NCBI GenBank assembly: GCA_919902675.1
Contig: CAKKRH010000001.1
Location: 128,003 to 192,002, forward strand
DNA from: Omnitrophica bacterium GWA2_41_15
GTDB taxonomy: Bacteria > Omnitrophota > Gorgyraeia > Gygaellales > UBA12090
Length of the DNA stretch: 64,000 nt
Direction of reading: 5' to 3'
Below the pieces are notes generated by a model. It had not been told where the DNA came from, ran no database searches, and was given only the letters and a program-made list of their open reading frames with translations. Positions 2,769 to 36,035 of the stretch are shown one piece after another; position 1 is the first letter of the stretch, and every line of letters starts with the position of its first letter. A program made the position numbers and the translations under genes.

Positions 2769-5284
2769 ATGCTTCATAACCTCAATAAACTCATATCCCT
2801 TTTTATCTCCTTTTGCCTTATCCTTGAGCAGATAGCCTTTGCCCAAAGCTTAGACCTCTCCCGCTACCTTGCCAATTCAACCAAGCCTCTCATCCAGAGT
2901 GATAAGTTCCGCCCCTTACACCTAAGGTATATCTCCTATGACAGCCAGGCCAATGATTTTAAACTGCTCTCAGATAAGGGCGACTTTATAAAGGGACTGT
3001 CCCCCGAAGGGGACTGTCCCTGATGAGAGAATACAAGAGGAAACCCAAACCCTGCTCAAGTATTTTTTTATCGGTTTATCCTTGCCCAATGAGAAGTTTT
3101 GGGTTAACTTAAGACCAGACTCACCTGATAATATCTTAGACCCTGACTTAGAGAAAACCGACATCGGAAGGATATTCTTGGAAGCCGATGTCCAGCTTAA
3201 GAAAGACACCGCCGGTATGACCTCGCCCCAAACCCCCGAAGGCAAGGCCTATTGGGATAAGCTATATCAGAAAGCCGGAGAATTATTCGGCACAGAAAAT
3301 ATCACCATCCCCACCCTAACCCGGCCCTGGATAGTGCCCAATGAAATAATCATCCGAGAGGCCCCGGATAGCGCCTACATCTACAAAGCTACCCTTAAGG
3401 TAATGCTGGAAGAAGACTATCTCAGTTCTTGGCACATCCCAACCAAACTACCAACCTCTAACTTCTAACTACAGCTTCTCCGACCCCAGGCTAAAGGAGT
3501 TGAATCAATATTCTACCCAACTAATCAAGGAAACCATAATCCCCAAGCTAACCTATGAGGTAAACACTTCCAAAAGATACGCCTCCTTAAGGCAGGTGTA
3601 TTACTCGCTCATCCTGGCCCAGTGGTTTAAACAAAGTCACCGAGTCACAAGGTCACAAAGCCGCCAGTCACCGGAAAACCCATATATTAAGCTTATAGAC
3701 AGCGGCAGCCTAACTTCAAACTTCCAATCTCTAACTTCCCAGAACCCTTATTCTAAAGAGACTTACTTCCAGCAATACCAGAAGTCATTTAAAGATGGGG
3801 AATACAACCTCACTGAGCCAGTATACACCCCAATGGGTCAGAGTGTTCGCAGGTATATGAGCGGGGGGATAGTAATAAATCCTAAAGCTGAAACTGTTGT
3901 CGGGGGCAATGTTGGATATAATCCTGAAAAGTCGTATCTGATAATGAAAGAGATTAATTTTTCCGGTAGTCCAATAATCAGCGATGCGCAGAAAACAGGC
4001 ATTAACGATGAGCGGAAAAACATTCCGGCTAACGAAGATACTTATTTAATTTATCATGCCACTGTCCCGGAAAAATTAGATAGTATTGTTAAGTATGGCC
4101 CCATACCATTTGAAGAGAATATGTCTTTTCCTTACGATCCCAAAACAAAAATAAAGCTAAGCCATATTTATGGAACTATAGACCCTAAAAAAGCTGTTGA
4201 ACATGTTAAGAATAATGGTGTGCATAACAGCGATCCAGCATTAAACGCTCAATTTAGCAGGATACCAGTCATCTTGGAGCTGCGATTACCTAAGGATTGG
4301 GTAAGAAATCGTCCAGAAGCGCAAGAGAAGCAGGGAGGAAGTAAGACGAGGCGGGAGATATTTGAAGATGATTTAAAAAGTTCGCTTGCTGCCAGCTACG
4401 CGGGAATAACTATCCCGGTAGATAATGTGCCTCCTGAATTTATCTTTGTTCAGAGCGAAAAAGGAATTTTACCGATAAAAGAATACATAAAATTAATAAC
4501 CCCGGAGATCACTTCGCTTAAGAACGACATGGCAGCAGTATCGATAGAGCAGGAGATAAAGATAAAAGAAATGTTAGGTAAATATGGGATAGACCCTGAT
4601 TTAATAAAATGGTCTTCGGATGATTGGACTCCCAATCTTGTGTACGGTAAGGCATTTTTTACTAAAAGAGGCGAGGATTTAATTAAAGAAAATGAAGATC
4701 ATGTGAAATTATTCGATTTTTTCTGGTATAGAAATAAATTACCCGAAAAAATAAAAGCAGGCTTGCCAGAAAGTTTAAGAGAAATGATTATTAAGAACAG
4801 GGAAAAGCTTAATTCAGTAATGGGCGGCATAGTAGAAGGAAACATAAAAGGCAGCGTTCTTGAATTACTAAAGATTGTGTTAAAAAATGAGTTAAGTAAA
4901 GATGTGGCCGCGCGTGAATATTTGGGTTTGGTTGAAGCATTTCAAAATAAGAAAGGCGGTATTGATTTTACCAACCCGTCTATTATAACCCAGTCGATTG
5001 GTGGCCTTCAATCTCTGATTTCCGGCCCAATACCCATAAGTCCGGATTTTGATTTTGATAAGGAATGGGCTCAGATACAGCAAATCTTTAACGCCGACAT
5101 TCAACCTTCGGCCCTGCGCTTGGCGGAATTTAGCGTAGCGGTTTCCAGTAATCCTGCCGAGATCCGGCGCAAGGAAGATGTTATTGGTTTGATTGCCGAC
5201 CTTCTGCGCCGGGAGGAAGAGGATAAAAAACTCACCCTTGCCGACCCAGCCTTAAAAGTCCTGCTTAGCGCCCTGGAGGCGTAG
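2769..5284 (+). pseudogene. Large secreted protein of unknown function, split into three ORFs (2769-3023, 3082-3468, 3500-5284) by two +1 frameshifts at short repeats
   Basis: Signal-peptide-like N-terminus MLHNLNKLISLFISFCLILEQIAFAQS. Open frames overlap at both junctions. Removing 1 nt (or 16 nt) at 2991-3020 and one heptamer at 3446-3473 restores a single ORF. Confidence 0.55.
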
Positions 5285-5287
5285 CGA

Positions 5288-5998
5288 TTAGAGGCCGGCG
5301 ATTTCTAAGAAGTTTTGAAATAGTTTTTGACCGGTTGAAGTGTATTCCGCGAGGAAGGAATTGAAGTCGTCTCGAAGTTGTTTTTTATTTAAGCGCAACA
5401 AATCCGCGTCTTCATTAAGCCATACCTCAAACATCTCCGGGGTGAGTTCAAAATGGCACTGGATGCCGTAGGCATTGGAGCCGACTTTTATGATTTGGTT
5501 TTGACAGAATTCTCCCTTACCCAGAAGTTTCATCTCCGGGGTCAGTTCAACCGTCTCCCCGTGAAGCTGAAAGACCCGGAAATTATCCCCCAATCCCTTA
5601 AAAAGGGGATCTTTCTTCTCTGCCGCGGTTAGGCTAATGATAAAAGGTTTGTTGTCTGGGCCTTTAAAGCCTACTTCTTTTAATGGGCTCTTTGCTACCT
5701 TGCCTCCAGCAGCCTTGATTAAGGTTTGTAATCCTAAACAAATACCCAGATAAGGGATATTCAGGGAAAGGGCTTCTTGGATTCTTTGTAATTCAGATTT
5801 CATTTTTGGGGTGTGGTCATTGGCGCTGTCCGGCCCGCCCATAACTACAAGGGCAGAGTAATCTTGAGGATGAGGAAAGGTCTCGCCCTTATCAAGGTCA
5901 ATGACGGTATAATTAATATTCCGCTCTTTGAGCAGGTTTTCAATAATCCCCGGGCCTTCGCGGGTGATATTTTTTACAATAAGAACAATTTTTTTCAT
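5288..5998 (-). CDS. Class I glutamine amidotransferase (GATase1, GuaA-N-like)
   Basis: 236-aa ORF with the nucleophile-elbow GICLGLQ and C-terminal QCHFE motifs of type 1 GATases. Confidence 0.8.
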   Translation of the reverse strand: MKKIVLIVKNITREGPGIIENLLKERNINYTVIDLDKGETFPHPQDYSALVVMGGPDSANDHTPKMKSELQRIQEALSLNIPYLGICLGLQTLIKAAGGKVAKSPLKEVGFKGPDNKPFIISLTAAEKKDPLFKGLGDNFRVFQLHGETVELTPEMKLLGKGEFCQNQIIKVGSNAYGIQCHFELTPEMFEVWLNEDADLLRLNKKQLRDDFNSFLAEYTSTGQKLFQNFLEIAGL

Positions 5999-6173
5999 CC
6001 GCTCGGGATAATGTTTAGAGACAAAAGCAAGTCGAATAAGTCATAGGAGTAATTATAACCCCGGCAACGGTCAGGTCAAGAGAAAAAAGGCCATCATATT
6101 GATTCAATTTAATTGATTAGAGGCAAATAGTTTGCTATACTTTTCTTTATAGGATTTTTCGAAAAGGAGCTTA

Positions 6174-7721: not shown

Positions 7722-8033
7722 ATGAAAAGAATGACTCCCGCGGCAAACTTACTTCTACGGACATTAACAGGCAAGTATAAACATTTTGCTCGAAAAGGGA
7801 TGTTAGCGGCAAACGGCTCATTTTATTGTCATGATGAGTATCTAATGCAGGAATTATATATCAGCGACAATACAATTAAAAGAGCGCGTATTTTTCTAAA
7901 AGAAGCCGGGGAAATTGACTATGTTATTGGTAAGTATAAGGGTGCGCCTACGCGGTACTGGATTATCTTAAAGGGTGCCAAGGAAAATAGGGACAGCGAC
8001 CATTTTATTGACTTCCTTCGCATTCCCTGGTAG
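7722..8033 (+). CDS. Hypothetical small protein, possibly winged-helix DNA-binding
   Basis: 103-aa ORF whose 3' end contains the left REP-like 20-mer. The central segment ELYISDNTIKRARIFLKEAGEIDY resembles an HTH. No firm family. Confidence 0.3.
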   Translation: MKRMTPAANLLLRTLTGKYKHFARKGMLAANGSFYCHDEYLMQELYISDNTIKRARIFLKEAGEIDYVIGKYKGAPTRYWIILKGAKENRDSDHFIDFLRIPW

Positions 8034-8757
8034 TATTACTTTATGCCCCGCATTGCCCGCGCAGTAGCTGTTGGATTACCGCACCATATCACCCAAAGAG
8101 GCAATTACCGCCAGGAGGTGTTTCGTGATGACAACGATAGAAGCCGGTATCTTTCCTGGATCAAAGACTACAGCCTAAAATACCGCCTCTCCATACTTGC
8201 TTATTGCCTTATGCAAAATCACGTGCATTTTATCGCCATTCCCAAAGAAGAAGATTCGCTCGCCAGGACTTTTAATTCTGCCCACATGCGCTACTCCCAG
8301 TACTTTAACAAAAGGATGAAAGCCAGAGGCCATCTCTGGCAGGGGCGTTTTTATTCCTGCATATTAGATGAACCCCGCCTGTTAATGGCATCCAGATACA
8401 TCGAGCGCAATCCGGTGCGCTCAGGGTTAGTGAAAAAACCCTGGGAGTGGCGCTGGTCCAGCGCGCCATACCATACAGGCAGAGAAAACAACCTTCTTAA
8501 TCTTGGGGATTTATTTAAGCTGACGGGTATGTCTTATGATTCCTGGAAGCAGTATATAGACACAAATGAGGAAGAAAAAGCCCTTGAGGCCATAAGAAGC
8601 CATACCTATACAGGCCGGCCCATAGGGTCTATTGACTTTGTTAAGAAGCTGGAAGAGAAATTCGGCAGGAGGCTGTTTGCCTTGCCAAGAGGCAGGCCAA
8701 GGGAAAACCCAGAATAAATGGTCGCTGTCCCTATTTTATGGTCGCTGTCCCTATTTT
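7984..8757 (+). mobile_element. RAYT gene flanked by inverted REP-like 20-mers (REPtron-like unit)
   Basis: AAAATAGGGACAGCGACCAT at 7984-8003. Its exact reverse complement ATGGTCGCTGTCCCTATTTT occurs twice in tandem at 8718-8737 and 8738-8757, bracketing the Y1 transposase gene. Confidence 0.75.
8043..8717 (+). CDS. REP-associated tyrosine transposase (RAYT) / IS200-like Y1 transposase
   Basis: LPHHITQRGN, CLMQNHVHFIAIP (HuH motif), GHLWQGRFYS and YIERNPVR motifs. Confidence 0.85.
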   Translation: MPRIARAVAVGLPHHITQRGNYRQEVFRDDNDRSRYLSWIKDYSLKYRLSILAYCLMQNHVHFIAIPKEEDSLARTFNSAHMRYSQYFNKRMKARGHLWQGRFYSCILDEPRLLMASRYIERNPVRSGLVKKPWEWRWSSAPYHTGRENNLLNLGDLFKLTGMSYDSWKQYIDTNEEEKALEAIRSHTYTGRPIGSIDFVKKLEEKFGRRLFALPRGRPRENPE

Positions 8758-8895
8758 CTATTTTCTATTTTGAAATGCGCAGGAATAATCTATCTTGATA
8801 GGCCCATTGAGTGGGTTGATGAAGCGAAGGGAATCTGCGTTTGCCCTCACTGCGGCGAAAAGGTAAAAGTTAATCTGTAAGAAATACTTATAAAC

Positions 8896-13320: not shown

Positions 13321-14272
13321 GCTTTATGTCGGGGTTTCCCCGCATATTCACAGCCGGGAAAGCGTTTCTAGGGTAATGTGGGCGGTCTGCGTTGCCCTTA
13401 TTCCTTCAGGCTTGGCCGGGGTATTTATCTTTGGCCTCCCGGCTTTAAAGGTTACCCTGATTTCCATAGTAAGTTGTGTCTTTACCGAGGCCCTAATTCA
13501 GAAATCCCGGGGTAAGAAAATAACCGCGGGCGATGGCTCAGCTGTGCTCACCGGGATTTTGCTGGCCTATAACCTTTCCTCAAGCGTTCCCTTTTGGATC
13601 CCTTTGATAGGGGGAGTTTTTGCTATTGCCGTATGTAAACAGGCCTTTGGCGGGTTAGGGGCAAATATTTTTAATCCGGCCCTGGCTGCCCGGGCCTTTT
13701 TACTGGCCTCCTGGCCAAAGCAGATGACCGGGTTTGTCAAACCGTTTAGCTTAGACGCAATCAGTTCAGCCACTCCATTGGCGGTATTGAAAGAACAGAG
13801 TGCTAAAAGTTTATCTGACCTTGGGCTGTCTTACTGGGATTTATTTTTTGGCCGGCGGGGAGGATGCTTAGGAGAGGTCTGCGTTATCGCCTTACTCTTA
13901 GGAGCGGTATATCTTTTATGGAAAGGCTATATCTGGCCTCAGGCTCCGGTGGGGCTTATTTTATCTTTAGGGTTTTTAAGCTGGGTCTTTAGCCCGCGGG
14001 GATTTTTTAAAGGCGATTTTCTCTTCAGCATACTTTCCGGCGGGCTTATCCTGGGGGCGTTTTTTATGGCCACGGATTATGTAACTACTCCCTTGACCAA
14101 AAAGGGCCAATTGGTCTTTGGCCTAGGATGCGGGCTGATCGCCTTTGTTATCCGCAGGTTCGGGGGATATCCCGAGGGGGTATCCTATTCAATCCTGATG
14201 ATGAACGCGGCTGTGCCGTTGATTGATAGATGGGTCAGGCCGAAGAGATACGGAAATAAAGTTGAAAGTTAA
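13310..14272 (+). CDS. rnfD: Rnf complex subunit D
   Basis: VGVSPHIHS N-terminus, polytopic, SSATPL motif, 320 aa, typical RnfD/NqrB family. Confidence 0.88.
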   Translation: MEDKLYVGVSPHIHSRESVSRVMWAVCVALIPSGLAGVFIFGLPALKVTLISIVSCVFTEALIQKSRGKKITAGDGSAVLTGILLAYNLSSSVPFWIPLIGGVFAIAVCKQAFGGLGANIFNPALAARAFLLASWPKQMTGFVKPFSLDAISSATPLAVLKEQSAKSLSDLGLSYWDLFFGRRGGCLGEVCVIALLLGAVYLLWKGYIWPQAPVGLILSLGFLSWVFSPRGFFKGDFLFSILSGGLILGAFFMATDYVTTPLTKKGQLVFGLGCGLIAFVIRRFGGYPEGVSYSILMMNAAVPLIDRWVRPKRYGNKVES

Positions 14273-14368: not shown

Positions 14369-14374
14369 TTAATT

Positions 14375-21344: not shown

Positions 21345-21346
<2 letters not shown>

Positions 21347-23350: not shown

Positions 23351-26336
23351 AGTTAAGGTTTTTGATAAACAGGGTGTTTTTGACGCTGTGGGCCAAGGCG
23401 TACTCAGGGATATTCGGGACTTAGGCATAGAGTCTGCCAAAGAAGCGCGTTTCGCCTTTTTGTATTACTTAAGCGGCGATATTGACGAGACGGTAGTCAG
23501 GCGCATCGCTGAGGAACTGCTCATTGACAAAATTACCCAGGAGTATTCCATAGAAAGCAGCCACCGCCAAATGGCGGGGTGCCGCCACGGGCGGCAAGAG
23601 CCGAAAGCCGAAAACCGAGAGTTGATAGAGGTGGCTTATAATTCCGGGGTAATGGATCCGGTTGAGGAGTCGCTTTTAAAGGCGGTCTCGGATATGGGTA
23701 TTTCCGGGCTTAATTCCGCGCGCACTGCCAGGCAGTATATTTTAGAAGGCAGTCTTTCGGATAGAGAGCTAAAGATAATCAGCGAGAAGCTTCTTTATAA
23801 TAAAGTGATTCAGCATATTGTCAAGTCCACAGTCCACAGTCCACAGTCCACAGCTTTGTCCCAAGGTGGATATAAGTTTAAACTGCTTACGATAGATTTA
23901 CTCAAGGCCTCGGATAAGAAACTGTGTCAGATAAGCAGGCAAGGGCAATTATTTTTGAATCTTTCCGAGATGCGCCAGATTAGGGATTATTTTAAGAAAT
24001 TAGGCCGCAAGCCTACAGATGTTGAGTTGGAGACTATTGCCCAGACCTGGAGTGAGCATTGCCGGCATAAGACGTTTAGAGGGAAGATTGAATATGTTGA
24101 AGAAATCCGAAATCCGAAATCCGAAATCCGAAACAAACCCAAAACCCAAAACCCAAAACCCAAAACAAAAATAATAAACAATCTTCTGAAATCCACCATA
24201 ATGAAGGTTACTAAGGAGTTGAATAAGCCCTGGTGCGTTTCGGTGTTTGAGGATAATTCCGGGGTGATTAAGTTTGACGATGAATACAATATCTGTTTTA
24301 AGGTGGAAACGCATAATCATCCTTCCGCGCTTGAGCCTTTTGGCGGGGCCAATACCGGAATCGGCGGGGTAATCCGGGATCCTATGGGGACAGGCCTGGG
24401 GGCCAAGCCGATTTTTAATACCGATGTTTTTTGTTTTGGCCCTCCGGATTATCCCCAGGGTAAACTTTCCCGGGGCGTTCTGCATCCTAAGCGTGTTGCC
24501 AAAGGGGTGGTCAGCGGGGTGCGGGATTATGGTAATAAAATGGGAATTCCCACCATAAACGGAGCGGTTTTGTTTGATCCGGGTTATATTGCCAATCCTC
24601 TGGTATGCTGCGGCACCGCCGGAATATTACCCAAGGATAAATCTTTTAAAAAGGTTTCCAGGGGAGACTTGATTGTGGTAGCAGGCGGCAGGACCGGAAG
24701 AGACGGTATCCACGGGGCAACCTTTTCCTCGGGTGAGCTTACCGAGAAATCAGAAGAGATTTCCGGGGGAGCAGTCCAGATTGGCAATCCCATAACTGAG
24801 AAAAAGGTGCTGGAGGCGCTTTTGCAGGCCCGGGATAAAAATTTGTATTCAGCCATTACTGATTGCGGGGCAGGAGGCTTGTCCAGCGCGGTGGGGGAAA
24901 TGGGGGAGAAGTTAGGCGCGCGGGTAGACTTAGAAAAAGTGCCTTTAAAATACCAGGGGCTTAGTTACGCCGAGATTTGGATTTCTGAGGCCCAGGAGAG
25001 GATGGTTCTGGCGGTGCCTAAAGAAAACATAGATGAGCTTTTAGAATTATGCGCCGGGGAGAATGTTGAGGCTGTGGTGATTGGGGAATTTAGCGGCACT
25101 AAAAAGTTAGAATTGTTTTATCAGGGGAATAAAGTTGGGAATCTGGATACGGACTTTATGCATAACGGCCTTCCCCGGACAATCAAAAAGGCGGTCTGGA
25201 AGCAACTAAGATATCAGGAGCCGGATTTCAACTGTCCTCAGGATTTAACCGAGACCTTAAAGAAGCTTTTAGGCCATTACAATATCTCTTCCAAGGAATG
25301 GGTTATCCGCCAGTATGACCATGAGGTTCAGGGCGGCTCAGTGCTCAGGCCGTTGGTGGGAATTGCCAATGACGGGCCTTCGGATGCCGCCATAGTCAAG
25401 CCTCGCCTGGAAACCGATCGCGGGGTGATTGTTTCCTGCGGGATAAATTTTAAATTCGGACTGATTGACCCTTACTGGATGGCGGCTTCTTCCATCGATG
25501 AGGCCTTGCGCCAGATTATTGCCGTAGGCGGCTCATTGAAAGAAGCGGCTTTATTGGATAATTTCTGCTGGGGCAATCCGGATAAGCCGGACCGGCTGGG
25601 TTCTTTGGTGCGCGCCGCCTTAGGTTGTTATAAAATCGCTAAGGGTTTTGGGACGCCTTTTATTTCAGGAAAGGACAGCCTGTATAATGAGTATTCGGTT
25701 GAGGGAAAATCTCAGGCTATTCCCGGGACACTATTGATTTCCGCGATCGCGGTTATGGATGATGTTACTCAGGCTGTTTCCATGGATGCCAAAAAGGAAG
25801 GAAATTTGATTTATGTTATCGGGGATACCTTTGATGAATTAGGCGGATCGCACTATTTTGATATTTTGGGTTTCATCGGAAATAATGTGCCTAAGGTAGA
25901 TGTGAAAAGAGCGAAACTCCTGATGGAGAGAGTTTCTCTTGCTTCCAGGCGAAGTTTAATTCGAGCCGCCCACGATTGTTCTGAGGGCGGCCTGGCCGTG
26001 GCTTTGGCGGAGATGGCCTTTGCCGGCGGCTTGGGGATGGAGATTTTTCTTAGTGAAGTGCCCTATAGGACAGTCCACAGTCCACAGTCCATAGTCCACA
26101 GTAAAAGAAACGATACAATTTTGTTTTCAGAGTCAAATTCACGGTTCATAGTTGAAGTAGAAAAAAAGAAACAGAAAGAGTTTGAGAAGCTGATGCGCGG
26201 AGTTTCTTGCGGCCTGATTGGCTGTGTGTCCGAGAAAAGATATTTTAAGGTTTACGGCTTGGACAATAAGCCTTGCGTTGAGGCGGATATTTACGATTTG
26301 AAAGAATCCTGGCAGAAGCCATTACGATGGGGGTAA
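23337..26336 (+). CDS. purL: Phosphoribosylformylglycinamidine synthase: tandem PurS-like domains fused to PurL (FGAM synthase II), carrying repeat-derived inserts
   Basis: N-terminal PurS-like MAVYKVKVFDKQGVFDAVGQGV and a second PurS-like NSGVMDPVEESLLKAV block. PurL core motifs WSEHCRHKTF, ETHNHPSALEPFGGANTGIGG and GNPITEKK. 999 aa. Confidence 0.9.
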   Translation: MAVYKVKVFDKQGVFDAVGQGVLRDIRDLGIESAKEARFAFLYYLSGDIDETVVRRIAEELLIDKITQEYSIESSHRQMAGCRHGRQEPKAENRELIEVAYNSGVMDPVEESLLKAVSDMGISGLNSARTARQYILEGSLSDRELKIISEKLLYNKVIQHIVKSTVHSPQSTALSQGGYKFKLLTIDLLKASDKKLCQISRQGQLFLNLSEMRQIRDYFKKLGRKPTDVELETIAQTWSEHCRHKTFRGKIEYVEEIRNPKSEIRNKPKTQNPKPKTKIINNLLKSTIMKVTKELNKPWCVSVFEDNSGVIKFDDEYNICFKVETHNHPSALEPFGGANTGIGGVIRDPMGTGLGAKPIFNTDVFCFGPPDYPQGKLSRGVLHPKRVAKGVVSGVRDYGNKMGIPTINGAVLFDPGYIANPLVCCGTAGILPKDKSFKKVSRGDLIVVAGGRTGRDGIHGATFSSGELTEKSEEISGGAVQIGNPITEKKVLEALLQARDKNLYSAITDCGAGGLSSAVGEMGEKLGARVDLEKVPLKYQGLSYAEIWISEAQERMVLAVPKENIDELLELCAGENVEAVVIGEFSGTKKLELFYQGNKVGNLDTDFMHNGLPRTIKKAVWKQLRYQEPDFNCPQDLTETLKKLLGHYNISSKEWVIRQYDHEVQGGSVLRPLVGIANDGPSDAAIVKPRLETDRGVIVSCGINFKFGLIDPYWMAASSIDEALRQIIAVGGSLKEAALLDNFCWGNPDKPDRLGSLVRAALGCYKIAKGFGTPFISGKDSLYNEYSVEGKSQAIPGTLLISAIAVMDDVTQAVSMDAKKEGNLIYVIGDTFDELGGSHYFDILGFIGNNVPKVDVKRAKLLMERVSLASRRSLIRAAHDCSEGGLAVALAEMAFAGGLGMEIFLSEVPYRTVHSPQSIVHSKRNDTILFSESNSRFIVEVEKKKQKEFEKLMRGVSCGLIGCVSEKRYFKVYGLDNKPCVEADIYDLKESWQKPLRWG
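23824..23853 (+). repeat. 30-nt module (AGTCCAC)4AG, copy 1 (purS2/purL junction)
   Basis: Exact AGTCCACAGTCCACAGTCCACAGTCCACAG, translated KSTVHSPQSTA. Confidence 0.95.
24102..24164 (+). repeat. 63-nt compound heptamer tract inside purL: (GAAATCC)3 GAAACAA (ACCCAAA)4 ACAAAAA
   Basis: Nine consecutive 7-nt units = 21 codons, translated EIRNPKSEIRNKPKTQNPKPKTK. Confidence 0.9.
26072..26101 (+). repeat. 30-nt module (AGTCCAC)4AG, copy 2 (purL C-terminal region), one mismatch
   Basis: AGTCCACAGTCCACAGTCCATAGTCCACAG, translated TVHSPQSIVHS. Confidence 0.95.
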
Positions 26337-26337
26337 G

Positions 26338-26997
26338 ATGATACCAAAACAACTAACCGCTAAAGAGGAATTTACCCACGAAGACCCGTGGCGGATTTTT
26401 AGGATAATGTCGGAGTTCGTGGAGGGTTTTGAGGTTTTATCCGAGGTGGGGGACGCGGTGTCCATATTCGGCTCATCCCGCACTAAACCCAATGATAAGT
26501 ATTACGCCTTAACTGAAGATATCGCCTATCATCTGGCCAAGGCCGGCTATGCCATTATCACCGGAAGCGGGCCCGGAATGATGGAGGCGGCCAATAAGGG
26601 CGCGCGCAGGGCCAAGGGGCATTCCATCGGTTTAAATATTGAAATGCCCAGCGAGCAAAAGTCTAACCGCTACGTGGATACCTTGATAGATTTCCATTAT
26701 TTTTTTATCCGCAAGGTGATGTTTGTCAAATACGCCAAGGCTTTCGTGATTACCCCCGGAGGTTACGGCACCCTGGATGAATTATTTGAGGCCATCAATT
26801 TGATTCAGACTGAACGCATCGGGAAATTTCCGGTAGTTCTGGCCGGAAAAGAATATTGGAGCGGGATACTGCGCTGGCTCAAAAGCACGGTTTTAAAAAG
26901 AGGAAACATTTCAGCCTGCGATTTGGAAATCTTTAAGGTTATTGACGAACCCAAAAAAATCGTCCAATATATTAACAGCTTCTATGGCAAGACCTAA
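26338..26997 (+). CDS. LOG family / TIGR00730-type Rossmann-fold nucleotide-binding protein
   Basis: GSGPGMMEAANKGA and PGGYGTLDELFE motifs. Confidence 0.85.
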   Translation: MIPKQLTAKEEFTHEDPWRIFRIMSEFVEGFEVLSEVGDAVSIFGSSRTKPNDKYYALTEDIAYHLAKAGYAIITGSGPGMMEAANKGARRAKGHSIGLNIEMPSEQKSNRYVDTLIDFHYFFIRKVMFVKYAKAFVITPGGYGTLDELFEAINLIQTERIGKFPVVLAGKEYWSGILRWLKSTVLKRGNISACDLEIFKVIDEPKKIVQYINSFYGKT

Positions 26998-27787
26998 GGT
27001 TTTAGTTTTACGCGCCGCGGGAACTAACTGTGATATGGAAACCGCCTTTGCTTTTTCCCGCGCCGGGGCGGTGGTTGAGCGGGTGCATATCAATCAGCTT
27101 AAAAGCCGCGCCAAAGAGCTTTCGCGATATCAAATCTTGGCTCTGCCCGGAGGCTTCAGCTACGGAGATGACCTTGCCGCCGGAAAAATCCTGGCCAATG
27201 AGTTGAAATATACCCTGGCGGATGCGCTCAGGGATTTTATTAAAAATGGGAAACTGATTATCGGCATCTGCAACGGTTTTCAGATTTTGGTTAAGGCCGG
27301 GCTCTTGCCGGGAAACAGCAATTCAGAGCAAGAGGTAACCCTGACTATTAACGATTCAGGAAAGTTTGAAGACCGTTGGACGTATCTGAAAAGTCCACAG
27401 TCCACAGTCCACAGTCCACAGATTAAATGCGTGTGGATAAGCGGGCTGTCTGAAGTAATCTATCTTCCCGTTGCCCATGGGGAAGGCAAGTTTATGGCCA
27501 AAGATAAAGCAGTTTTGGAAAGATTAGAAAATAATGGGCAGGTGGTTTTGCGCTATTGCGATGAAAAGGGAAATCCCGCGCAATACCCGGATAACCCCAA
27601 TGGTTCAGAAAATGCTATTGCCGGGCTTTCGGATGAGACCGGCAGAATCTTCGGCTTAATGCCTCATCCGGAGCGCCATAGCTTTGGCTGGCAAAATCCC
27701 CGCTGGACGCGCCAGGGTTTAAAAAAAGAAGGCGATGGCCTGCTGATTTTCCGTAACGGAGTAGAATATGCCAGAAAACTCATATAA
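26984..27787 (+). CDS. purQ: Phosphoribosylformylglycinamidine synthase I (glutaminase subunit)
   Basis: VLVLRAAGTNCDMETA, GGFSYGDDL, GICNGFQIL and MPHPER motifs. Start moved to ATG 26984 (MARPKV). Confidence 0.9.
   Translation: MARPKVLVLRAAGTNCDMETAFAFSRAGAVVERVHINQLKSRAKELSRYQILALPGGFSYGDDLAAGKILANELKYTLADALRDFIKNGKLIIGICNGFQILVKAGLLPGNSNSEQEVTLTINDSGKFEDRWTYLKSPQSTVHSPQIKCVWISGLSEVIYLPVAHGEGKFMAKDKAVLERLENNGQVVLRYCDEKGNPAQYPDNPNGSENAIAGLSDETGRIFGLMPHPERHSFGWQNPRWTRQGLKKEGDGLLIFRNGVEYARKLI
27392..27421 (+). repeat. 30-nt module (AGTCCAC)4AG, copy 3 (purQ)
   Basis: Exact 30-mer, translated KSPQSTVHSPQI. Confidence 0.95.
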
Positions 27788-29210
27788 CGACGAGCCGAAA
27801 GAATACTGCGGTTTGTTTGGAATTATGAATCATAGACAGGCCAGTTGGCTTACTTATCTGGGTTTATATGCCCAACAGCACCGGGGGCAGGAGGCCTGCG
27901 GAATTGCCGTAAACAATAATGGAGCGCTCTCTATCCATAAAGGTATGGGGTTGGTCAGCGATGTGTTTGGCGAACAGGTGGTAAACAGTTTGAAAGGAAA
28001 TATGGCGGTAGGCCATGTGCGCTATTCTACCACCGGCTCAAGCATCTTGAAAAATGCCCAGCCGCTGTTGATTGAGTATGCCAAGGGTTCAATCTGTATT
28101 GCCCATAACGGAAACCTGGTGAATTCTTTAGAACTGCGCCAGTATCTGGAAAAAAGAGGTTCAATTTTCCAGACTACCACTGACTCGGAATTGATTATTC
28201 ATTTAATGGCCAGATCCCATTCCCAGGACATCAAAGAAAGCCTGCTGTATGCTTTAAGAAGGGTTAAGGGCGCTTATTCTTTGGTGATGATGAATAGCCA
28301 GTATCTTATCGGTGTCCGGGACCCTTTAGGGTTTCGCCCGCTTTGTCTGGGTAAGCTGGGCCCGGCCTGGTGTTTGGCTTCGGAGACCTGCGCTTTGGAT
28401 TTGATTGGGGCCAAGCTGGTGCGCGAGATTGACCCGGGGGAAATAGTTTTTATCAGCAAAGACGGACTGAAGTCCTTAAGGCCAAAAGAACTACGGCATA
28501 AAAGATACGCCCATTGCACTTTTGAACATGTGTATTTCGCCCGGCCGGATTCTGTGGTATTTGGCGAGACCGTGCATGTGGTCCGGCAGAAATTAGGCGA
28601 GCAATTAGCCAAAGAGCATCCGATAAAAGCGGATTTTGTGGTGCCGGTCCCGGATTCGGGATTTTCGGCGGCCTTGGGATATTCCAAGAGTTCGGGTATT
28701 CCCTTGGAGATGGGAATAATCCGCAACCATTATGTAGGCAGGACTTTTATCCAGCCGGCCCAGGATTCCAGGGAATTAAGCGTCAAGGTCAAATTTAACG
28801 TACTGAAGGATGTGTTGAGGGGTAAGCGTATTGTCATTGTGGATGATTCTATAGTCCGGGGTAATACCTCCAGGATCCGGGTGCGTAATCTGCGCAAGGT
28901 CGGAGTAAAAGAGGTGCACTTGAGGATATCCTGCCCGGCGCACCGCTATCCTTGTTTTTACGGAATAGATTTTCATAAAGCTAATGAATTAATTGCCAAC
29001 AGGTATGAATCCATAGAAAAAATCCGGCAGTATCTGGGCGTGGACAGTTTAGGCTACTTGAGTTTGGAAGGTATGCTGGGTTGTCTAAAACACCCCGTAA
29101 ATCACTATTGCACTGCCTGTTGGACGGGTAAATACCCCCTTACGGCGGAGAAAATGCACGGAAAGTTTTCCCTTGAGGCGCCTTGCTGTGGACAGGAAGA
29201 GACGGTTTAA
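27768..29210 (+). CDS. purF: Amidophosphoribosyltransferase
   Basis: Propeptide then CGLFGI nucleophile; GHVRYSTTG; PRTase motif VIVDDSIVRGNT. Confidence 0.93.
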   Translation: MPENSYNDEPKEYCGLFGIMNHRQASWLTYLGLYAQQHRGQEACGIAVNNNGALSIHKGMGLVSDVFGEQVVNSLKGNMAVGHVRYSTTGSSILKNAQPLLIEYAKGSICIAHNGNLVNSLELRQYLEKRGSIFQTTTDSELIIHLMARSHSQDIKESLLYALRRVKGAYSLVMMNSQYLIGVRDPLGFRPLCLGKLGPAWCLASETCALDLIGAKLVREIDPGEIVFISKDGLKSLRPKELRHKRYAHCTFEHVYFARPDSVVFGETVHVVRQKLGEQLAKEHPIKADFVVPVPDSGFSAALGYSKSSGIPLEMGIIRNHYVGRTFIQPAQDSRELSVKVKFNVLKDVLRGKRIVIVDDSIVRGNTSRIRVRNLRKVGVKEVHLRISCPAHRYPCFYGIDFHKANELIANRYESIEKIRQYLGVDSLGYLSLEGMLGCLKHPVNHYCTACWTGKYPLTAEKMHGKFSLEAPCCGQEETV

Positions 29211-29212
29211 GA

Positions 29213-30199
29213 ATGAAACAAGTAACTTATAAAAAATCCGGGGTTGATATTGAGGAGGCCGGTCGTTTTGTGGAAGCGATCAGGCCGTTAACCCGCGGCA
29301 TCGGCGGATTCGGCGGTTTGTTTAAATTTGATACCAAGAATTTTAAGGAACCGTATCTGGTTTCTTCAACCGACGGGGTGGGGACTAAGCTAAAGATTGC
29401 CTTTTTGGTTGGTAAGCACAATACCGTAGGGATTGATTTGGTAGGGATGAATGTCAATGATATTTTATGCGCCGGAGCCAAGCCTTTGTTTTTCCTTGAT
29501 TATATCGCCTGCGGAAAAATTCAGACAGGCGTCCTGACGGATGTGGTCAAAGGTATTGCCGAGGGTTGCCGCCAGGCCGGCTGTTCTTTGGTGGGCGGGG
29601 AAACCGCCGAGATGCCCGGGTTTTATAAAGAAGGCGAGTATGATTTAGCCGGGTTTTGCGTGGGGGTGGTTGATAAATCAAAGGCTGTCAATGGCTCAAA
29701 AATTAAGGCAGGGGATGTCCTTATAGGGATAGAATCTAACGGCCTGCACTCTAACGGATTTTCTTTGGTGAGAAAAGTTTTTACCAAAAAAGAACTAATA
29801 AAGTATGCTGACGCATTGCTCAAGCCCACCCGCATTTATGTTAAGCCAATTTTATCTTTACTGTCGACTATCGACTGTGGACTATCGACTATTAAAGGCA
29901 TCGCCCACATCACCGGCGGCGCCTTTTACGATAAAATCCCGCGGGTTATTCCAAAGGATTTAGGGATATACATAGACAAAAACAGCTGGCCGGTTCCGGA
30001 AATCTTCCGGCTGATTCAAGAAAAAGGCAATGTCCCGGAAAGCGATATGTACCGCACCCTGAATATGGGAATTGGTATGGTTTTAGCCCTTGAAAAGGGG
30101 AGAGCGGATAAGGTAATGTCCAGACTTAAGAGTTCAGGCCTCAGGTCCTGGGTAATTGGCGAAGTCATTAAGGGTAAAGAGCGGGTTAAAATTATCTAA
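29213..30199 (+). CDS. purM: Phosphoribosylformylglycinamidine cyclo-ligase (AIR synthetase)
   Basis: YKKSGVDIEEA, STDGVGTKL, DLVGMNVNDIL and AHITGGAF motifs. Start moved to ATG 29213. Confidence 0.92.
   Translation: MKQVTYKKSGVDIEEAGRFVEAIRPLTRGIGGFGGLFKFDTKNFKEPYLVSSTDGVGTKLKIAFLVGKHNTVGIDLVGMNVNDILCAGAKPLFFLDYIACGKIQTGVLTDVVKGIAEGCRQAGCSLVGGETAEMPGFYKEGEYDLAGFCVGVVDKSKAVNGSKIKAGDVLIGIESNGLHSNGFSLVRKVFTKKELIKYADALLKPTRIYVKPILSLLSTIDCGLSTIKGIAHITGGAFYDKIPRVIPKDLGIYIDKNSWPVPEIFRLIQEKGNVPESDMYRTLNMGIGMVLALEKGRADKVMSRLKSSGLRSWVIGEVIKGKERVKII
29861..29890 (+). repeat. 30-nt heptamer tract in purM: CTGTCGA CTATCGA CTGTGGA CTATCGA CT
   Basis: Period 7. It contains TGTGGAC, the reverse complement of GTCCACA. 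Translated LSTIDCGLST. Confidence 0.85.
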
Positions 30200-30211
30200 A
30201 GGAGGCGCAAA

Positions 30212-31072
30212 ATGAGTCTATTTTATCTTATTTTTATTGCGGGGATTGTGGTGTTTTTTTCAGGAATCAAGATTGTCCGGCCTACGCATCGCGGATTGAT
30301 TGAGCGTTTAGGCAAATACAACCGTTTTGCCCAGGCAGGGTTTCACTGGATTATTCCTGTAATCGAGCGGTTGTATATGATTAACGTAACTGAACAGATG
30401 GTGGATGCCGAGCCTCAGGAAATTATTACCTTTGATAACCTTAATGCCAAGGTGGATGCCCAGGTGTATTTTAAGGTCAAGCCGGATGAGCAAAGCGTGC
30501 AGAATACTGTTTATAATGTGAACAACTACCAGTGGCAGATAGTAAATCTGGCCCGGACTACCTTAAGAAATATTATCGGCACCCTGACTTTAAAATCCGC
30601 GAACTCCGAGCGTGGTAAAATTAATGATGAACTGCATAAGACGATGATGAGCGAAACTATGCATTGGGGAATTGAGATTGTGCGCACTGAGTTAAAAGAG
30701 ATTGACCCGCCTAAGGATGTTCAGGAGACGATGAATAAGGTAGTCAAGGCTGAGAATGAAAAGATTTCAGCGGTTGACTTTGCCACTGCCACCGAGACCG
30801 TAGCCGATGGGGCGCGCCGGGCCGAGATTAAGAAGGCCGAAGGCGTAAAGCAGGCCAAGATTTTAGAGGCGGAGGGCGAGTCCGAGGCTATCCGGCTGGT
30901 GAATGAGGCCGCGGAGAAATATTTCGTCGGCAATGCCCAGCTTTTAAGAAGACTGCAGATGGCCGAGCGGGCCCTGGAGTCTAATGCCAAAATTATTGTT
31001 CCCTCCAATACCGAATTAGTCAATGTTATCGGAGACTTGGCCGGGGTAGTGCCGATAAAGAAAAGCAGTTAG
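30212..31072 (+). CDS. SPFH/band 7 (stomatin/prohibitin-like) membrane protein
   Basis: N-terminal TM helix, SPFH core (VDAQVYFKV, TLRNIIGTLTL) and an Ala/Glu-rich coiled C-terminus. Confidence 0.85.
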   Translation: MSLFYLIFIAGIVVFFSGIKIVRPTHRGLIERLGKYNRFAQAGFHWIIPVIERLYMINVTEQMVDAEPQEIITFDNLNAKVDAQVYFKVKPDEQSVQNTVYNVNNYQWQIVNLARTTLRNIIGTLTLKSANSERGKINDELHKTMMSETMHWGIEIVRTELKEIDPPKDVQETMNKVVKAENEKISAVDFATATETVADGARRAEIKKAEGVKQAKILEAEGESEAIRLVNEAAEKYFVGNAQLLRRLQMAERALESNAKIIVPSNTELVNVIGDLAGVVPIKKSS

Positions 31073-31102
31073 GCTCAAGCCTTAAGCGGAAATACTTAAA
31101 AG

Positions 31103-32413
31103 ATGAAAATTTTAGTTATTGGTTCAGGCGGCAGGGAGCACGCGATAATCTGGAAGCTTAAGCAGTCTAAATCTTTGCCTGAGATATATTGCGCTCCGGG
31201 TAACGGCGGGATATCCCGCGATGCCCGGATTGTGGACATCCAATCCGATGATATCAAAGGCTTGTTGGATTTCGCGGTAAAGGAAAAAATAGATTTGACT
31301 ATTGTAGGGCCTGAAGCGGCCCTGGCCCATGGAATAGTGGATAGGTTTATGCGTAAAGGCTTAAGTATTTTCGGGCCCACCAAAGAGCTTGCCCTTTTAG
31401 AATCCAGCAAGGCCTATGCCAAAGAAACTATGCGCGGGCTTAATATCCCCACTGCCGGTTTTGAGATTTTTGCTGAACCTGATAAGGCCATAGATTTTAC
31501 TAATAGGCCGCGCCTCTTTGCCGCGCATTATCCGGTAGTAGTTAAGGCTGACGGCCTGGCCGCGGGTAAAGGGGTGGTGATTTGTAAAGACCGTAAAGAA
31601 GCCCAGATAGCTATTGAAGATATGATGGTTAGAAAGGTCTTTGGCCCCGCCGGGACGCGTGTAGTAATTGAGGAGCACCTGGAAGGCGAAGAGGCCTCAA
31701 TTTTAGTGGTTTCCGACGGAATCAATTTTACCGCCTTAGCTTCGGCGCAGGATCATAAGAGGGTCTTTGACCGCGATAAGGGCCCCAATACCGGAGGCAT
31801 GGGGGCATATTCTCCGGCGCCAATAGTAACCCGGGATACGCATAAGCGAATAATGGATCAGGTCATTGAGCCTTTAATTACCGGCCTGGCCAAGGAAGGT
31901 AAGTTTTATAAAGGGATTCTTTATGCCGGGATAATGATTACTAAGCAGGGGCCTCAGGTTTTAGAGTTTAATGTTCGTTTTGGCGATCCCGAGACTCAAG
32001 CTATTTTGCCGCGTTTAAAAACGGATTTAGCGGATTTGTGTTTCGCCTCAATTGAGGATAAGATTGACCGGCTAAAATTAGAGTGGGAAGAAAAATCAGC
32101 TGTCTGCGTGGTTTTGGCCTCTGGAGGCTACCCCGGGGATTATCAGAAAGGTCTTGAGATTTCCGGCTTAGAGGATGCCGATACTTTGGCTGATGGAGAT
32201 TCCCACATCTTTCATGCCGGCACCGCGATTAGTCCACAGTCCACAGTCCACAGTCCACAGTTTGTTACTGACGGGGGACGCGTGTTGAATGTAGTGGGTT
32301 TAGGGGATACTATTCGTCAGGCGGCGCAGAAGGCTTATAAGATAGCCGGTAAAATTAAGTTTGATAAGATGCATTACCGTAAGGACATCGCCCACAGGGC
32401 GCTTAAAAGTTAG
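31103..32413 (+). CDS. purD: Phosphoribosylamine-glycine ligase
   Basis: MKILVIGSGGREHA, VVKADGLAAGKGV, GPNTGGMGAY and GGRVLNV motifs. Confidence 0.93.
   Translation: MKILVIGSGGREHAIIWKLKQSKSLPEIYCAPGNGGISRDARIVDIQSDDIKGLLDFAVKEKIDLTIVGPEAALAHGIVDRFMRKGLSIFGPTKELALLESSKAYAKETMRGLNIPTAGFEIFAEPDKAIDFTNRPRLFAAHYPVVVKADGLAAGKGVVICKDRKEAQIAIEDMMVRKVFGPAGTRVVIEEHLEGEEASILVVSDGINFTALASAQDHKRVFDRDKGPNTGGMGAYSPAPIVTRDTHKRIMDQVIEPLITGLAKEGKFYKGILYAGIMITKQGPQVLEFNVRFGDPETQAILPRLKTDLADLCFASIEDKIDRLKLEWEEKSAVCVVLASGGYPGDYQKGLEISGLEDADTLADGDSHIFHAGTAISPQSTVHSPQFVTDGGRVLNVVGLGDTIRQAAQKAYKIAGKIKFDKMHYRKDIAHRALKS
32231..32260 (+). repeat. 30-nt module (AGTCCAC)4AG, copy 4 (purD)
   Basis: Exact 30-mer, translated ISPQSTVHSPQF, between FHAGTA and VTDGGRVL. 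Confidence 0.95.
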
Positions 32414-34164: not shown

Positions 34165-34180
34165 TAACAGGAGTTATCCC

Positions 34181-34684
34181 ATGCCTAAGCAAAATATTCA
34201 AAAAGAAAGGATTATTATCGCCAGCGACCACGGCGGATTCAGATTAAAGGAAAAGATTAGAAACTTCCTGGAGAAAAAGGGTTATCAGGTTAAGGACGCG
34301 GGCTGTTTTAACCAGGAGTCTTGCGATTACCCGGCGTATGCTTACGCCGCGGCAAAAGAGGTGTCTTTAGGGAATTTTTCTAAGGGCATTTTAATCTGTA
34401 AAAGCGGAATCGGGAATTCTATAGTGGCAAATAAACTTCCCCGGGTGCGGGCGGCTTTATGTTATAATCTAAAAGCGGCCAAACTTTCCCGTAAGCATAA
34501 TGACGCTAATGTTTTGGTTTTGGGGGATTTATTCGTTAAGGAGACTATGGCCAAGAGAATAGTGAGCCTTTGGTTAAAAACCGAATTTGAGGGCGGAAGG
34601 CACTTAAGAAGGGTTGAGCAGATAAGAGATATTGAGGATAAGACCAATGAGTTGTTTAAAAAAGATAGACCCGCGAATATATAA
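34181..34684 (+). CDS. rpiB: Ribose-5-phosphate isomerase B
   Basis: [29 protein letters not shown] and [12 protein letters not shown] motifs. Start moved to ATG 34181. Confidence 0.9.
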
Positions 34685-35891
34685 GATAATTAAGGCGGAA
34701 GGCCTGCGTCAGAAAGAAAACTTAGAGCTGATTGCCTCGGAGAATTTTACCTCTTTGGGGGTCCTGGAGGCCCAGGGGTCAGTCCTGACCAACAAATACG
34801 CCGAAGGGTATCCTCATCACCGCTGGTATGGCGGCTGCGAGAATGTGGATCAGGTTGAAGGCCTGGCTATTGAGCGGGCCAAAGAACTTTTTAAGGCTGA
34901 GCATGTCAATGTCCAGGCCCACTCCGGAAGCCAGGCCAATATGGCAGTTTACTTCACCTGTCTTAATGTCGGGGATACCATAATGGCTCTAGACCTTGCC
35001 TGCGGAGGGCATCTTACCCATGGCCACGCGCATAATTTCTCCGGCAAGCTCTATAAAGTGGTTTCCTATGGGGTTGATCCCAAGAGTGAACAATTGGATT
35101 ATGATAAGATATTAACCCTGGCTAAGGAATGTCATCCCCGCCTGATTTTGGCCGGGGCATCGGCTTACCCTCGAATTATTGATTTTAAGAAATTCCGGTC
35201 TATCTGTGATAAGGTGGGAGCTTATCTGTTTGTGGATATGGCTCATATCGCCGGGTTGGTCGCGGCAGGGGTTCATCCTTCACCGGTTCCGGACGCGGAG
35301 TTTGTCAGCTCCACTACCCATAAGACCCTGCGCGGGCCGCGGGGAGGTTTTATCCTTTGCAAAAAAGAATTTAGCCGTAAGCTGGATTTAGAGATTTTTC
35401 CAGGGATACAGGGCGGGCCTTTGATGCATACCATTGCCGCCAAGGCCGTGGCTTTCAAAGAAGCCTCAAGCGCCAAGTTTAAGAAAGACCAGAAACAGAC
35501 TGTCCGAAACGCCCGGATCCTTTGCTCGGTCTTAATTGAGAAAGGGTATCGGGTGGTTTCCGGAGGAACAGACAATCATCTTTTCTTATTGGATTTAACC
35601 TTAAAAGGCGTAAGCGGCAAAGAGGCCCAGGAAAAATTAGACCGCTGCGGGATTACCGTGAATAAAAATATGATTCCTTTTGATGTTAAATCTCCTTCTT
35701 TGGCCAGCGGAATACGTATCGGCACCCCCGCGGTTACCACCCGGGGAATGAAGGAAAAAGAAATGCGCCTCATCGCCGGTTTTATTGACCGGGGATTGTG
35801 GGCTTGCGGGGAGAGAGAAATCAGCAAGATTAAGAAAGAGGTGAAGGGATTAACCTCTAAATTCCCTCTTTATCCTAAAATTAAAAAGTGA
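34647..35891 (+). CDS. glyA: Serine hydroxymethyltransferase
   Basis: [20 protein letters not shown] and [12 protein letters not shown] (PLP-Lys) motifs. Start at ATG 34647 overlaps rpiB. Confidence 0.93.
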
Positions 35892-35905
35892 GGCAGCAAC
35901 AGGAA

Positions 35906-36035
35906 AATGTCTAATGACGAAATCCGAATGGCGAATTAATGTCCAATGCCTAAAGGCCTAAATAAATCTTTTAGACATTAGAGAATTGAATAATTAGTCA
36001 TTTATTCGGCATTCGTTATTAGGAAATTCGACATT
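35906..36035 (+). repeat. Heptamer-periodic inverted arrays in the glyA / dCMP deaminase spacer
   Basis: Left AATGTCT AATGACG AAATCCG AATGGCG AATTAAT GTCCAAT. Right ...TTTATTC GGCATTC GTTATTA GGAAATT CGACATT. Terminal blocks AATGTC.../...GACATT and CGAATGGCGAAT/ATTCGGCATTCG are complementary. Confidence 0.65.

Follow-up and report, generated by a model that had tools for sequence, protein, structure and literature searches.

Tandem arrays of seven-nucleotide units in enzyme loops and gene spacers of an Omnitrophota genome

Why should a bacterial genome carry short tandem arrays with a constant period of seven nucleotides, built from many different units, both inside the genes of essential enzymes and in the spacers between genes? 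The question is raised by a stretch of 64,000 nt from Omnitrophica bacterium GWA2_41_15 (contig CAKKRH010000001.1, positions 128,003 to 192,002 of the forward strand), here called the window, whose positions are used throughout unless another locus is named. A sequence-only reading of this DNA had listed 13 such loci and ascribed them to a lineage-specific process with a 7-nt step, followed by exaptation of its products as loop peptides and RNA hairpins. Our analysis confirms that a 7-nt step is strongly and non-randomly preferred and that 8 nt follows as a minor alternative.

The strongest period was 7 nt at all 13 listed loci, as had been claimed. Tandem Repeats Finder (TRF) returned 13 period-7 rows in the window (14258-14298, 14341-14367, 15609-15628, 15699-15728, 21386-21413, 23599-23618, 23824-23853, 24102-24133, 24135-24166, 26070-26102, 27392-27421, 29860-29892 and 32231-32261), with 2.9-6 copies and six rows at 100% match, and only scattered two-copy matches at other periods. 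The degenerate loci missed by TRF (3446-3473, 3712-3739, the arms of 35906-36035 and the left arm 21345-21365) were examined by lag autocorrelation against shuffles, and lag 7 gave the top value in each (P <= 0.01). Periods were then compared in a lag-p self-match scan, with a single score threshold across periods 2-15 and second-order Markov shuffles as the null. At equal threshold the window holds eight period-7 arrays and none at any other period, and 30 shuffles of it hold none at all. Six further regions of this genome, totalling 128 kb once overlaps are removed, yielded eight period-7 arrays against one in total for the other periods from 4 to 15, and their shuffles again yielded none. 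The third sample joined the window to 80 relatives, namely the sister genome L001 and 79 further Omnitrophota, represented by DNA centred on the purine (pur) operon with 10-kb flanks. In these 1.26 Mb there were 54 arrays at period 7, 16 at period 8, six at period 12, one at period 9 and none at period 6; no period besides 7 and 8 exceeds six. The excess of period 7 on which the sequence-only reading had staked its case is present in every sample.

Roughly 192 kb of this genome contains 17 arrays, five of which are of the AGTCCAC 30-mer type. Across the window and its relatives, array lengths cluster at 30-33 nt, and 47 of the 54 period-7 arrays lie inside open reading frames (ORFs) of at least 150 aa, membership being judged from open frames alone; such ORFs make up 92% of the DNA. 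Since periods 6 and 9, which would always keep the frame, are essentially absent, the 7-nt step is a preference of the mutational process itself, not something produced by selection for frame. The preference is not confined to one lineage. Heptanucleotides constitute the most abundant class of long-unit simple sequence repeats (SSRs) in most prokaryotic genomes having such repeats, according to the account of Mrazek 2007 given in PMC4679880 (see also PMC4692102), and metagenome contigs ranging over 26-70% GC contain (AGTCCAC)n arrays alongside 77 further arrays of period 7. Taken together, these observations contradict the proposed lineage-specific process. AGTCCAC arrays were also rejected as a marker of Omnitrophota, given that the hits span this range of base composition; of the loci hit, only one has any homology to the window.

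How can a 7-nt period be carried by genes that must keep their reading frame? The purine operon of the window is co-directional, in the order purB, purS-purL fusion, purQ, purF, purM, an SPFH gene and purD, and it contains the following arrays:

23597-23617, plus strand: ARAGCCG x3, 21 nt, in frame in purS-purL; called by TRF, lag-7 autocorrelation 0.86.
23824-23853, plus strand: AG(TCCACAG)x4, 30 nt, in frame in purS-purL; TRF, 100% match.
24102-24166, plus strand: GAAATCC x4.6 and AAACCCA x4.6, adjacent, 63 nt in frame in purS-purL; TRF, 100% match.
26070-26102, plus strand: AGTCCAC x4.7 with one variant unit, in frame near the PurL C-terminus; TRF.
27392-27421, plus strand: AG(TCCACAG)x4, 30 nt, in frame in purQ; TRF, 100% match.
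29860-29892, plus strand: ACTATCG-type array (CTGTCGA CTATCGA CTGTGGA CTATCGA CT), in frame in purM; TRF.
32231-32261, plus strand: AG(TCCACAG)x4, 30 nt, in frame in purD; TRF, 100% match.

The claim that array length is a multiple of 3 in essential genes stands: the seven lengths are 21, 30, 63, 30, 30, 30 and 30 nt, and all array-bearing pur ORFs are intact with full-length Pfam matches. Only frame-preserving arrays were seen in coding DNA. PurS is joined to the N-terminus of PurL in one 999-aa protein (23337-26336), while PurQ is encoded by a separate gene. Outside the window, the same genome carries two in-frame arrays in hemB (ALAD), AAAAGGC x4.6 and an AGTCCAC 30-mer (L203, 17193-17224 and 17677-17706), and AAACCCG x4.6 in carB (L205, 21821-21852); in-frame heptamer arrays are therefore not peculiar to the pur operon. 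The AGTCCAC 30-nt block is found in purL (twice, once with a single variant), purQ, purD and hemB. Because a 7-nt unit is read in all three frames in turn, one unit specifies one cyclic heptapeptide whatever the frame, and AGTCCAC indeed encodes SPQSTVH in three different frames of this genome; the array at 23824-23853 encodes part of this cyclic peptide.

Alignments of orthologs place every intragenic array in a length-variable segment between conserved motifs. The sister genome, L001, is the metagenome-assembled genome (MAG) JAUSCZ01, with 98% PurF identity to the window; the phylogeny is ((window, L001), (L002, L003)), with L034 and L064 further out. A given loop holds about 4.3 copies of differing units in different genomes, several of them with 8-nt units. 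The purM loop, flanked by the motifs YVKPxLSLL and IKGIAHIT, illustrates the pattern, with perfect ACTATCG arrays in L001, L079 and L064, other units in L013, L034, L066 and L024, and 8-nt units in L016 and L017; its heptamers across genomes are ACTATCG, CGACCAT, ACGAAGG, CTCCAGG, CTAAACG and GAACCTA. Orthologs likewise have other units at the loop of 23824-23853, and at 26070-26102 AGTCCAC recurs in L003 and L034 and is replaced by AAAGGCA in L001. The array pair at 24102-24166 also occurs in L001, in which a GC-rich palindrome of 21 nt splits each of the two arrays. The purD array stands where L001 and outgroups keep a native KNNK-type loop; the purQ loop has 3 aa in array-free orthologs, and the PurQ insert is an insertion relative to solved PurL structures. 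Exaptation as loop peptides finds no support here, as the loops vary freely in length and the sister genome lacks the arrays at two sites.

The number of units gained can be read from these loops. At purQ, purD and the purL site at 26072, loops with a period-7 array exceed the commonest array-free loop by about 7 aa and those with a period-8 array by about 8 aa, a gain of three units in both cases. The excess is smaller at purM and at the purL site at 23824, because array-free loops there already differ in length. The purQ loop also suggests where units come from: array-free L049 and L070 carry a single AAGTCACAAG, and the same place is occupied by (AAGTCAC)x4 in L040 and by (AAGTCACA)x4 in L024. 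Similarly, AGCCCGCAG (Ser-Pro-Gln) in L006 corresponds in the window to AGTCCACAG plus three more TCCACAG units. A general test for such local seeds was weakly positive, the exact unit being present in array-free orthologs at 3.1% of same sites and 1.9% of other sites (p = 0.025).

The arrays in spacers present a different structural context. In addition to the pur operon, Pfam matches define a hydrogenase module, an rnf operon (~11.5-17.1 kb), eno, sua5 and glyA in the window, and four spacer elements, two in the rnf operon, one after eno and one after glyA, are each flanked by co-directional genes and fold into long, imperfect hairpins with AT-rich stems (z = -3.2 to -5.0 in RNA folding):

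14258-14372, plus strand: AAAGTAA-type and TTTTGAC-type arms in the spacer from rnfD to the rnfE/A-type gene; TRF; -25 kcal/mol, z = -3.2; arm lag-7 autocorrelation 0.83 and 0.71.
15606-15728, plus strand: CAAAATC-type and TTTGTCA-type arms between the rnfA/E-type gene and rnfB; TRF; -33.1 kcal/mol, z = -5.0; arm lag-7 autocorrelation 0.61 and 0.59.
21345-21413, plus strand: AGTTTAT-type and ATAAACT-type arms, starting in the last bases of eno, whose stop codon ends at 21346; TRF for the right arm; -18 kcal/mol, z = -4.8; arm lag-7 autocorrelation 0.71 and 0.81.
35906-36035, plus strand: degenerate arms of AATNNNN period in the glyA-deaminase spacer; -32.7 kcal/mol, z = -3.4; lag-7 autocorrelation 0.54 in each arm, P <= 0.0005.

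The sequence-only reading had described spacer arrays as inverted pairs forming hairpins, which fits these four predicted structures; an inverted partner is present, however, for five of the eight intergenic arrays examined. The hairpins are not conserved in relatives. Judged over the window and 206 loci, each is unique apart from one relocated homolog in L001, and L002 has its own inverted pair of GGGA-type arrays downstream of eno. The glyA-deaminase spacer measures 0-14 nt in most relatives, which identifies the 130-nt element of the window as an insertion. Its homolog in L001 (20119-20265), with AATGNCN-periodic arms 89-91% identical, lies after the deaminase gene; the position one gene further downstream indicates that this hairpin, at least, moved as a unit. 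The hairpins at 14258-14372, 15606-15728 and 21345-21413 were not among the terminator-like sites found, and with their AT-rich stems these three were rejected as intrinsic terminators, which have a GC-rich stem and a T-run. Rfam matches at the gathering score comprised three tRNAs in the whole window and none of the heptamer hairpins. These results give no support to exaptation as RNA hairpins, although a putative role as stem-loops in mRNA is plausible; the single mechanism proposed for both peptide inserts and hairpins is likewise a conjecture.

We consider slipped-strand expansion in a 7-8-nt register, filtered by selection, to be the best explanation of the arrays, with a probability of about 55%. 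During replication or repair, the nascent strand would slip back on its template, a realignment of about 7 nt being strongly favoured and one of 8 nt coming a minor second, and each slipped realignment would reiterate a short local sequence into a tandem array. Within genes, survival would need a tolerant, length-variable loop, a unit without stop codons in the three frames and a length change that is a multiple of 3. Units gained in sets of three would account for the uniform arrays of roughly four units (30 nt) and for the 7-8 residues gained. An out-of-frame tract would persist only in a dispensable, already decaying gene such as the paralog discussed below, and copy number would be free in spacers. 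Inverted pairs would probably arise by copying or correction of one hairpin arm against the other, or by movement of whole elements. Both slippage as the generator and the reason for a step of 7 nt are what we infer from this comparative pattern.

Several observations weigh against slippage in its plain form. Stepwise growth from one unit to two, three and four would frameshift essential genes, so that three units would have to be gained in one event. Boundaries of the AGTCCAC 30-nt block are identical in five places and in all three frames, which is unlikely to result from independent local seeds, and the local-seed test was not significant when one mismatch was allowed; given the weakness of these tests, the local-seed model relies mainly on the purQ example. 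The purD array replaces its loop, with a net gain of 18 nt over the native KNNK loop, and the purQ array has a net gain of 15 nt over L001; neither is a clean gain of 21 nt. Near-perfect ACTATCG and AGTCCAC arrays recur at corresponding loops of genomes with only 60-67% protein identity, the ACTATCG arrays being shared by purM loops at ~60%. No copy-number polymorphism was seen among independent assemblies of the species. Finally, divergence from the sister genome triples beside arrays, which plain slippage does not predict. Comparison of window positions 23337-32413 with L001 gave the following identities by distance from the nearest array:

Less than 30 nt: 78%.
30-60 nt: 85%.
60-150 nt: 88%.
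150-250 nt: 90%.
More than 250 nt: 93%.

Deeper comparisons were flat with distance, at 72-81%. Identity within 100 nt was 78-83.5% at the five sites where the arrays of the window and L001 differ, and 87% and 91% at the two sites where an array is common to both. Lower constraint explains part of the drop at three sites; the remainder suggests array turnover with patch-wise recombination or with error-prone, mutagenic repair synthesis.

This gradient, together with the AGTCCAC blocks, keeps a component of copying or conversion as the main rival to slippage. Pre-formed arrays such as AG(TCCACAG)4 would here be spread by copy-paste or templated insertion, with an existing copy or a template acting in trans as the source and tolerant sites as the targets, or ectopic gene conversion would homogenise dispersed arrays, possibly through patch-wise repair or recombination; we regard this account as possible but clearly less likely than slippage. 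It would readily accommodate 30-mers with the same boundaries in purL (two), purQ, purD and hemB in three frames, the replacement of the native purD loop, the highest flank divergence where sister arrays differ, and the presence of a whole hairpin element in a different spacer of L001. The purM array has three differences from that of L001, all toward the reverse complement of AGTCCAC. Units are also more alike within than between genomes (12% against 3.8% of pairs at most one base apart; permutation p = 0.002), although this statistic is driven largely by the four arrays of the window itself. L003 has AGTCCAC arrays in common with the window at three sites and L034 at one, where the sister L001 has other units or no array; recombination with an L003-like donor was rejected, as the flanks of the window show no greater similarity to L003. 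Also against copying, a single genome harbours many different units, and both 7- and 8-nt versions arise around one local motif.

Insertion into existing arrays is documented in the relatives, where one such insert, the GC-rich palindrome mentioned above, also favours copying. The palindrome measures 20-21 nt, has the consensus CTGCCTGCCGGCAGGCAGGC and occurs scattered through nine or more related genomes. It stands in frame inside arrays at ~6280-6325 of L001 (purL), in the purQ and purD loops of L064 and in the purM loop of L040, with further copies in L013, L015, L035, L039, L046, L059 and L079. It is absent from the window and was accordingly set aside. Two other inserts were observed in purD loops, both in frame: a 24-nt insert, CCCGCGACTGCGCTCAGGGCAGGC, which interrupts the L003 array of AGTCCAC units at ~12.6 kb of that locus, and one of ~66 nt within the GACGCAG array of L064.

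The sequence-only reading had suggested looking for a correlation with candidate enzymes, namely reverse transcriptases, primase-polymerases or transposases of the RAYT (REP-associated tyrosine transposase) type, REP denoting repetitive extragenic palindromic sequences. Pfam and NCBIfam scans of 45 window ORFs gave no reverse transcriptase and no primase-polymerase, which speaks against copy-paste. The sole candidate for a repeat-handling enzyme in the window is RAYT-like:

8043-8717, plus strand: RAYT-like Y1 transposase gene (Pfam Y1_Tnp; NCBIfam REP_Tyr_transpos at 73.7 bits, cut-off 80).
7984-8005, and 8716-8737 with 8738-8757: perfect inverted REP-like repeats of 20-22 nt, 100% complementary.
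8751-8771, plus strand: CTATTTT x3, TRF 100% match, missed by the sequence-only reading.

The right-hand repeat is duplicated in tandem, and the same 22-mer recurs, 100% identical, as an 'empty' inverted REPIN-like doublet in distant L038 (2772-2817). The CTATTTT array grows from the 3' end of the right-hand repeat and is without an inverted partner; this tail has two CTATTTT units in L038 and three in the window. This adjacent array is the only tie between the gene and heptamers. The flanking 20-22-mers are unrelated to the heptamer hairpins, and a part for the transposase in making the arrays is accordingly no more than conjectural.

A bolder version of copying is doubtful, somewhat more so than copying in general: an active, genome-specific copy-paste or templated process that would write a ready-made block of ~30 nt into essential genes in any frame, altering ~100-250 nt of flanking sequence. 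If true, such block writing would represent a previously undescribed type of mobile or templated element, minute in size and active within coding sequence, and it would explain the genome-specific dominant heptamers of other phyla.

It is less likely still that the arrays are selected cis-elements, that is, mRNA or DNA binding sites of a genome-specific factor that mark a regulon. AGTCCAC occurs always on the sense strand, at four places in the pur operon and in hemB; arrays are perfect and invariant within the species, and like arrays are kept at like loops in distant genomes. Yet L001 keeps the operon with other units or none at five of seven sites, and units vary freely between genomes at one and the same site. 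The arrays lie in coding loops instead of untranslated leaders, AGTCCAC arrays are found in unrelated genes of unrelated taxa, and a candidate binding protein was not found.

Could the arrays be phase-variation (contingency) switches, turning a gene off and on by one 7-nt unit? A single unit does shift the frame, and one tract coincides with a frame break in a gene at 2769-5284, for which the sequence-only reading had claimed that a tract breaks the frame of a non-essential gene. The gene contains these tracts:

3446-3473, plus strand: AACTACC AACCTCT AACTTCT AACTACA, 28 nt; lag-7 autocorrelation 0.71, P = 0.0005.
3712-3739, plus strand: AACTTCN x4, in frame; lag-7 autocorrelation 0.67, P = 0.0005.
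3626-3672: tract of ~8-nt period, AGTCAC-type, missed by the sequence-only reading.

ORFs 3082-3468 and 3500-5284 are one gene, since two homologs (P0002 and P0007) align across the tract-bearing junction. The tract at 3446-3473 lies in a variable loop where the reading frame changes, a shift that tblastn locates at 3426-3437. The gene has another frameshift near 2993-3031, away from any heptamer tract, and is split over three reading frames (2769-2993, 3031-3426 and 3437-5281), which makes it probably a pseudogene. The tract at the junction may plausibly have caused the break there. The gene and its paralogs form a very large family specific to Omnitrophota, with more than 532 database matches and several members per MAG; most members measure 900-1250 aa, their N- and C-terminal modules being conserved and their middle domains variable. 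The N-terminal part of the gene also carries 11-nt tandem repeats of TTTTACCCTTA type (2698-2722 and 2794-2814).

Phase variation nevertheless appears very improbable. The window proteins (NCBI MEK6563554-60, from a 192-kb contig) are encoded also on a 2.155-Mb ENA contig (ERZ1286166 contig_28), and independent assemblies give four full-length PurSL variants, all of 999 aa with identical arrays; in PurD variants the array is present or absent, with nothing between. Fragmented PurSL calls on the 2.16-Mb contig have their breaks away from arrays. The hosts are housekeeping enzymes (purL, purQ, purM, purD, hemB and carB), not surface, virulence or restriction-modification genes; up to seven tracts lie in one operon, and the frame-broken gene has its second frameshift elsewhere. 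Chance, base composition or assembly artefact, to which only the degeneracy of three listed loci points, is practically dismissed by the empty shuffles, by recurrence of the arrays in independent NCBI and ENA assemblies and by arrays at orthologous sites in many MAGs from different studies.

The last 28 kb of the window (36100-64000) contain no heptamer arrays, an absence that is not significant at the genome-wide array density. This part encodes DprA, conjugation genes of TraG/TraC/VirD4-like type from ~44 kb onwards and defence-like genes (SIR2-like, and HEPN AbiU2 with a Pol-beta-type nucleotidyltransferase). It includes a low-GC stretch at 52-58 kb (32-39% GC), where a spacer (57416-57560) holds clustered short tandem repeats with periods of 8, 9, 12 and 19 nt, and may be a recently acquired element.

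The heptamers of cyanobacteria, termed short tandemly repeated repetitive (STRR) sequences, were reportedly first described by Mazel et al. in 1990. They resemble the arrays studied here in their genome-characteristic heptamer units, short tandem arrays and many loci, and they differ in that they are described mainly from intergenic DNA, whereas ours are in-frame inserts in conserved enzymes with other units. Three such heptanucleotides are ascribed to Calothrix PCC 7601 in a work cited in PMC4692102. Among the GGGNATC heptamers of Xanthomonas and Nostoc, sets of four units are preferred and inverted pairs occur now and then (Rehm et al. 2015, PMC4692102); G-quadruplex formation was given as the reason for the four-unit preference (PMC4692102). 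The units of the window (AGTCCAC, GAAATCC, AAACCCA, ACTATCG, AAAGTAA and others) lack a G3 tract; as they are not G-rich, their preference for four units needs another explanation, and the frame rule provides one inside genes.

TAACTGA repeats are found in marine Beggiatoaceae and in some Cyanobacteria and Bacteroidetes (MacGregor 2015, PMC4679880). They contain stops in all forward frames, lie mostly just upstream of start codons and were proposed as post-transcriptional or chromosomal regulon sites in Beggiatoaceae (PMC4679880). As in our arrays, one heptamer dominates the genome in sets of 2-6 copies, a few sets lie inside ORFs at protein peripheries, and the mechanism of spread is unknown; there were no TAACTGA arrays in the TRF table of the window. 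The SSRs surveyed by Mrazek, Guo and Shah in 2007, as far as they are summarized in PMC4679880, are alike in 7-nt excess, scattered loci and diversity of units, and slippage with a polymerase contact length of ~7 nt had already been proposed for them. Units that are multiples of 3 were likeliest in coding regions in that survey (via PMC4679880), whereas here 47 of the 54 period-7 arrays lie in long ORFs, about the ORF proportion of the DNA, and periods 6 and 9 are virtually absent. Omnitrophota are not among the Mrazek genomes described in that summary, and no report linking the phylum with such repeats was found in the literature searched.

Borg tandem repeats are likewise perfect, lie in spacers and ORFs, arise independently in related genomes and add unstructured peptide segments, and flanking partial repeats were proposed as their seeds (Schoelmerich et al. 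2023, PMC9879509). Their unit lengths inside ORFs are all divisible by three, and copy number varies within populations (PMC9879509); here, in contrast, units have 7 or 8 nt, the frame is kept by the number of units, and no variation within the species was seen. The REP and REPIN elements of RAYT systems share hairpins of ~70-130 nt between co-directional genes and a RAYT-like gene with inverted repeats, but our heptamer hairpins are not dispersed near-identical copies and do not look like the repeat that flanks the RAYT-like gene. In Nostoc, Elhai et al. reportedly described in 2008 small dispersed repeats (SDR) lying within tandem heptamers, a parallel to the palindromes that interrupt arrays in L001, L064 and L040.

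The bacterial excess of 7-nt repeats goes back in the literature to 1990 and 2007 and, to our knowledge, still awaits an established cause; the cases published so far come mostly from intergenic DNA. The present lineage offers a natural experiment in which a few enzyme loops have been struck repeatedly in dozens of genomes. Pairs of sister genomes with and without an array, differing units and the two periods of 7 and 8 nt aid comparison, and step size, units per event and local collateral damage, seen as the three-fold rise in divergence, become measurable by comparative genomics. These loops indicate that non-triplet repeats can lengthen essential proteins without breaking them if units are gained three at a time. 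With head-to-tail 7-nt units in at least three copies, dispersed loci and a dominant unit, the Omnitrophota arrays belong to the known heptanucleotide SSR class of the STRR type, together with those of Xanthomonas, Beggiatoaceae and many other bacteria. The predominantly intergenic location of the STRR, GGGNATC and TAACTGA repeats, which does not define the class, is not found here. The arrays differ from the published cases in their phylum, in the lack of depletion from coding DNA, in their recurrence at the same enzyme loops and in keeping the reading frame by three-unit gains.

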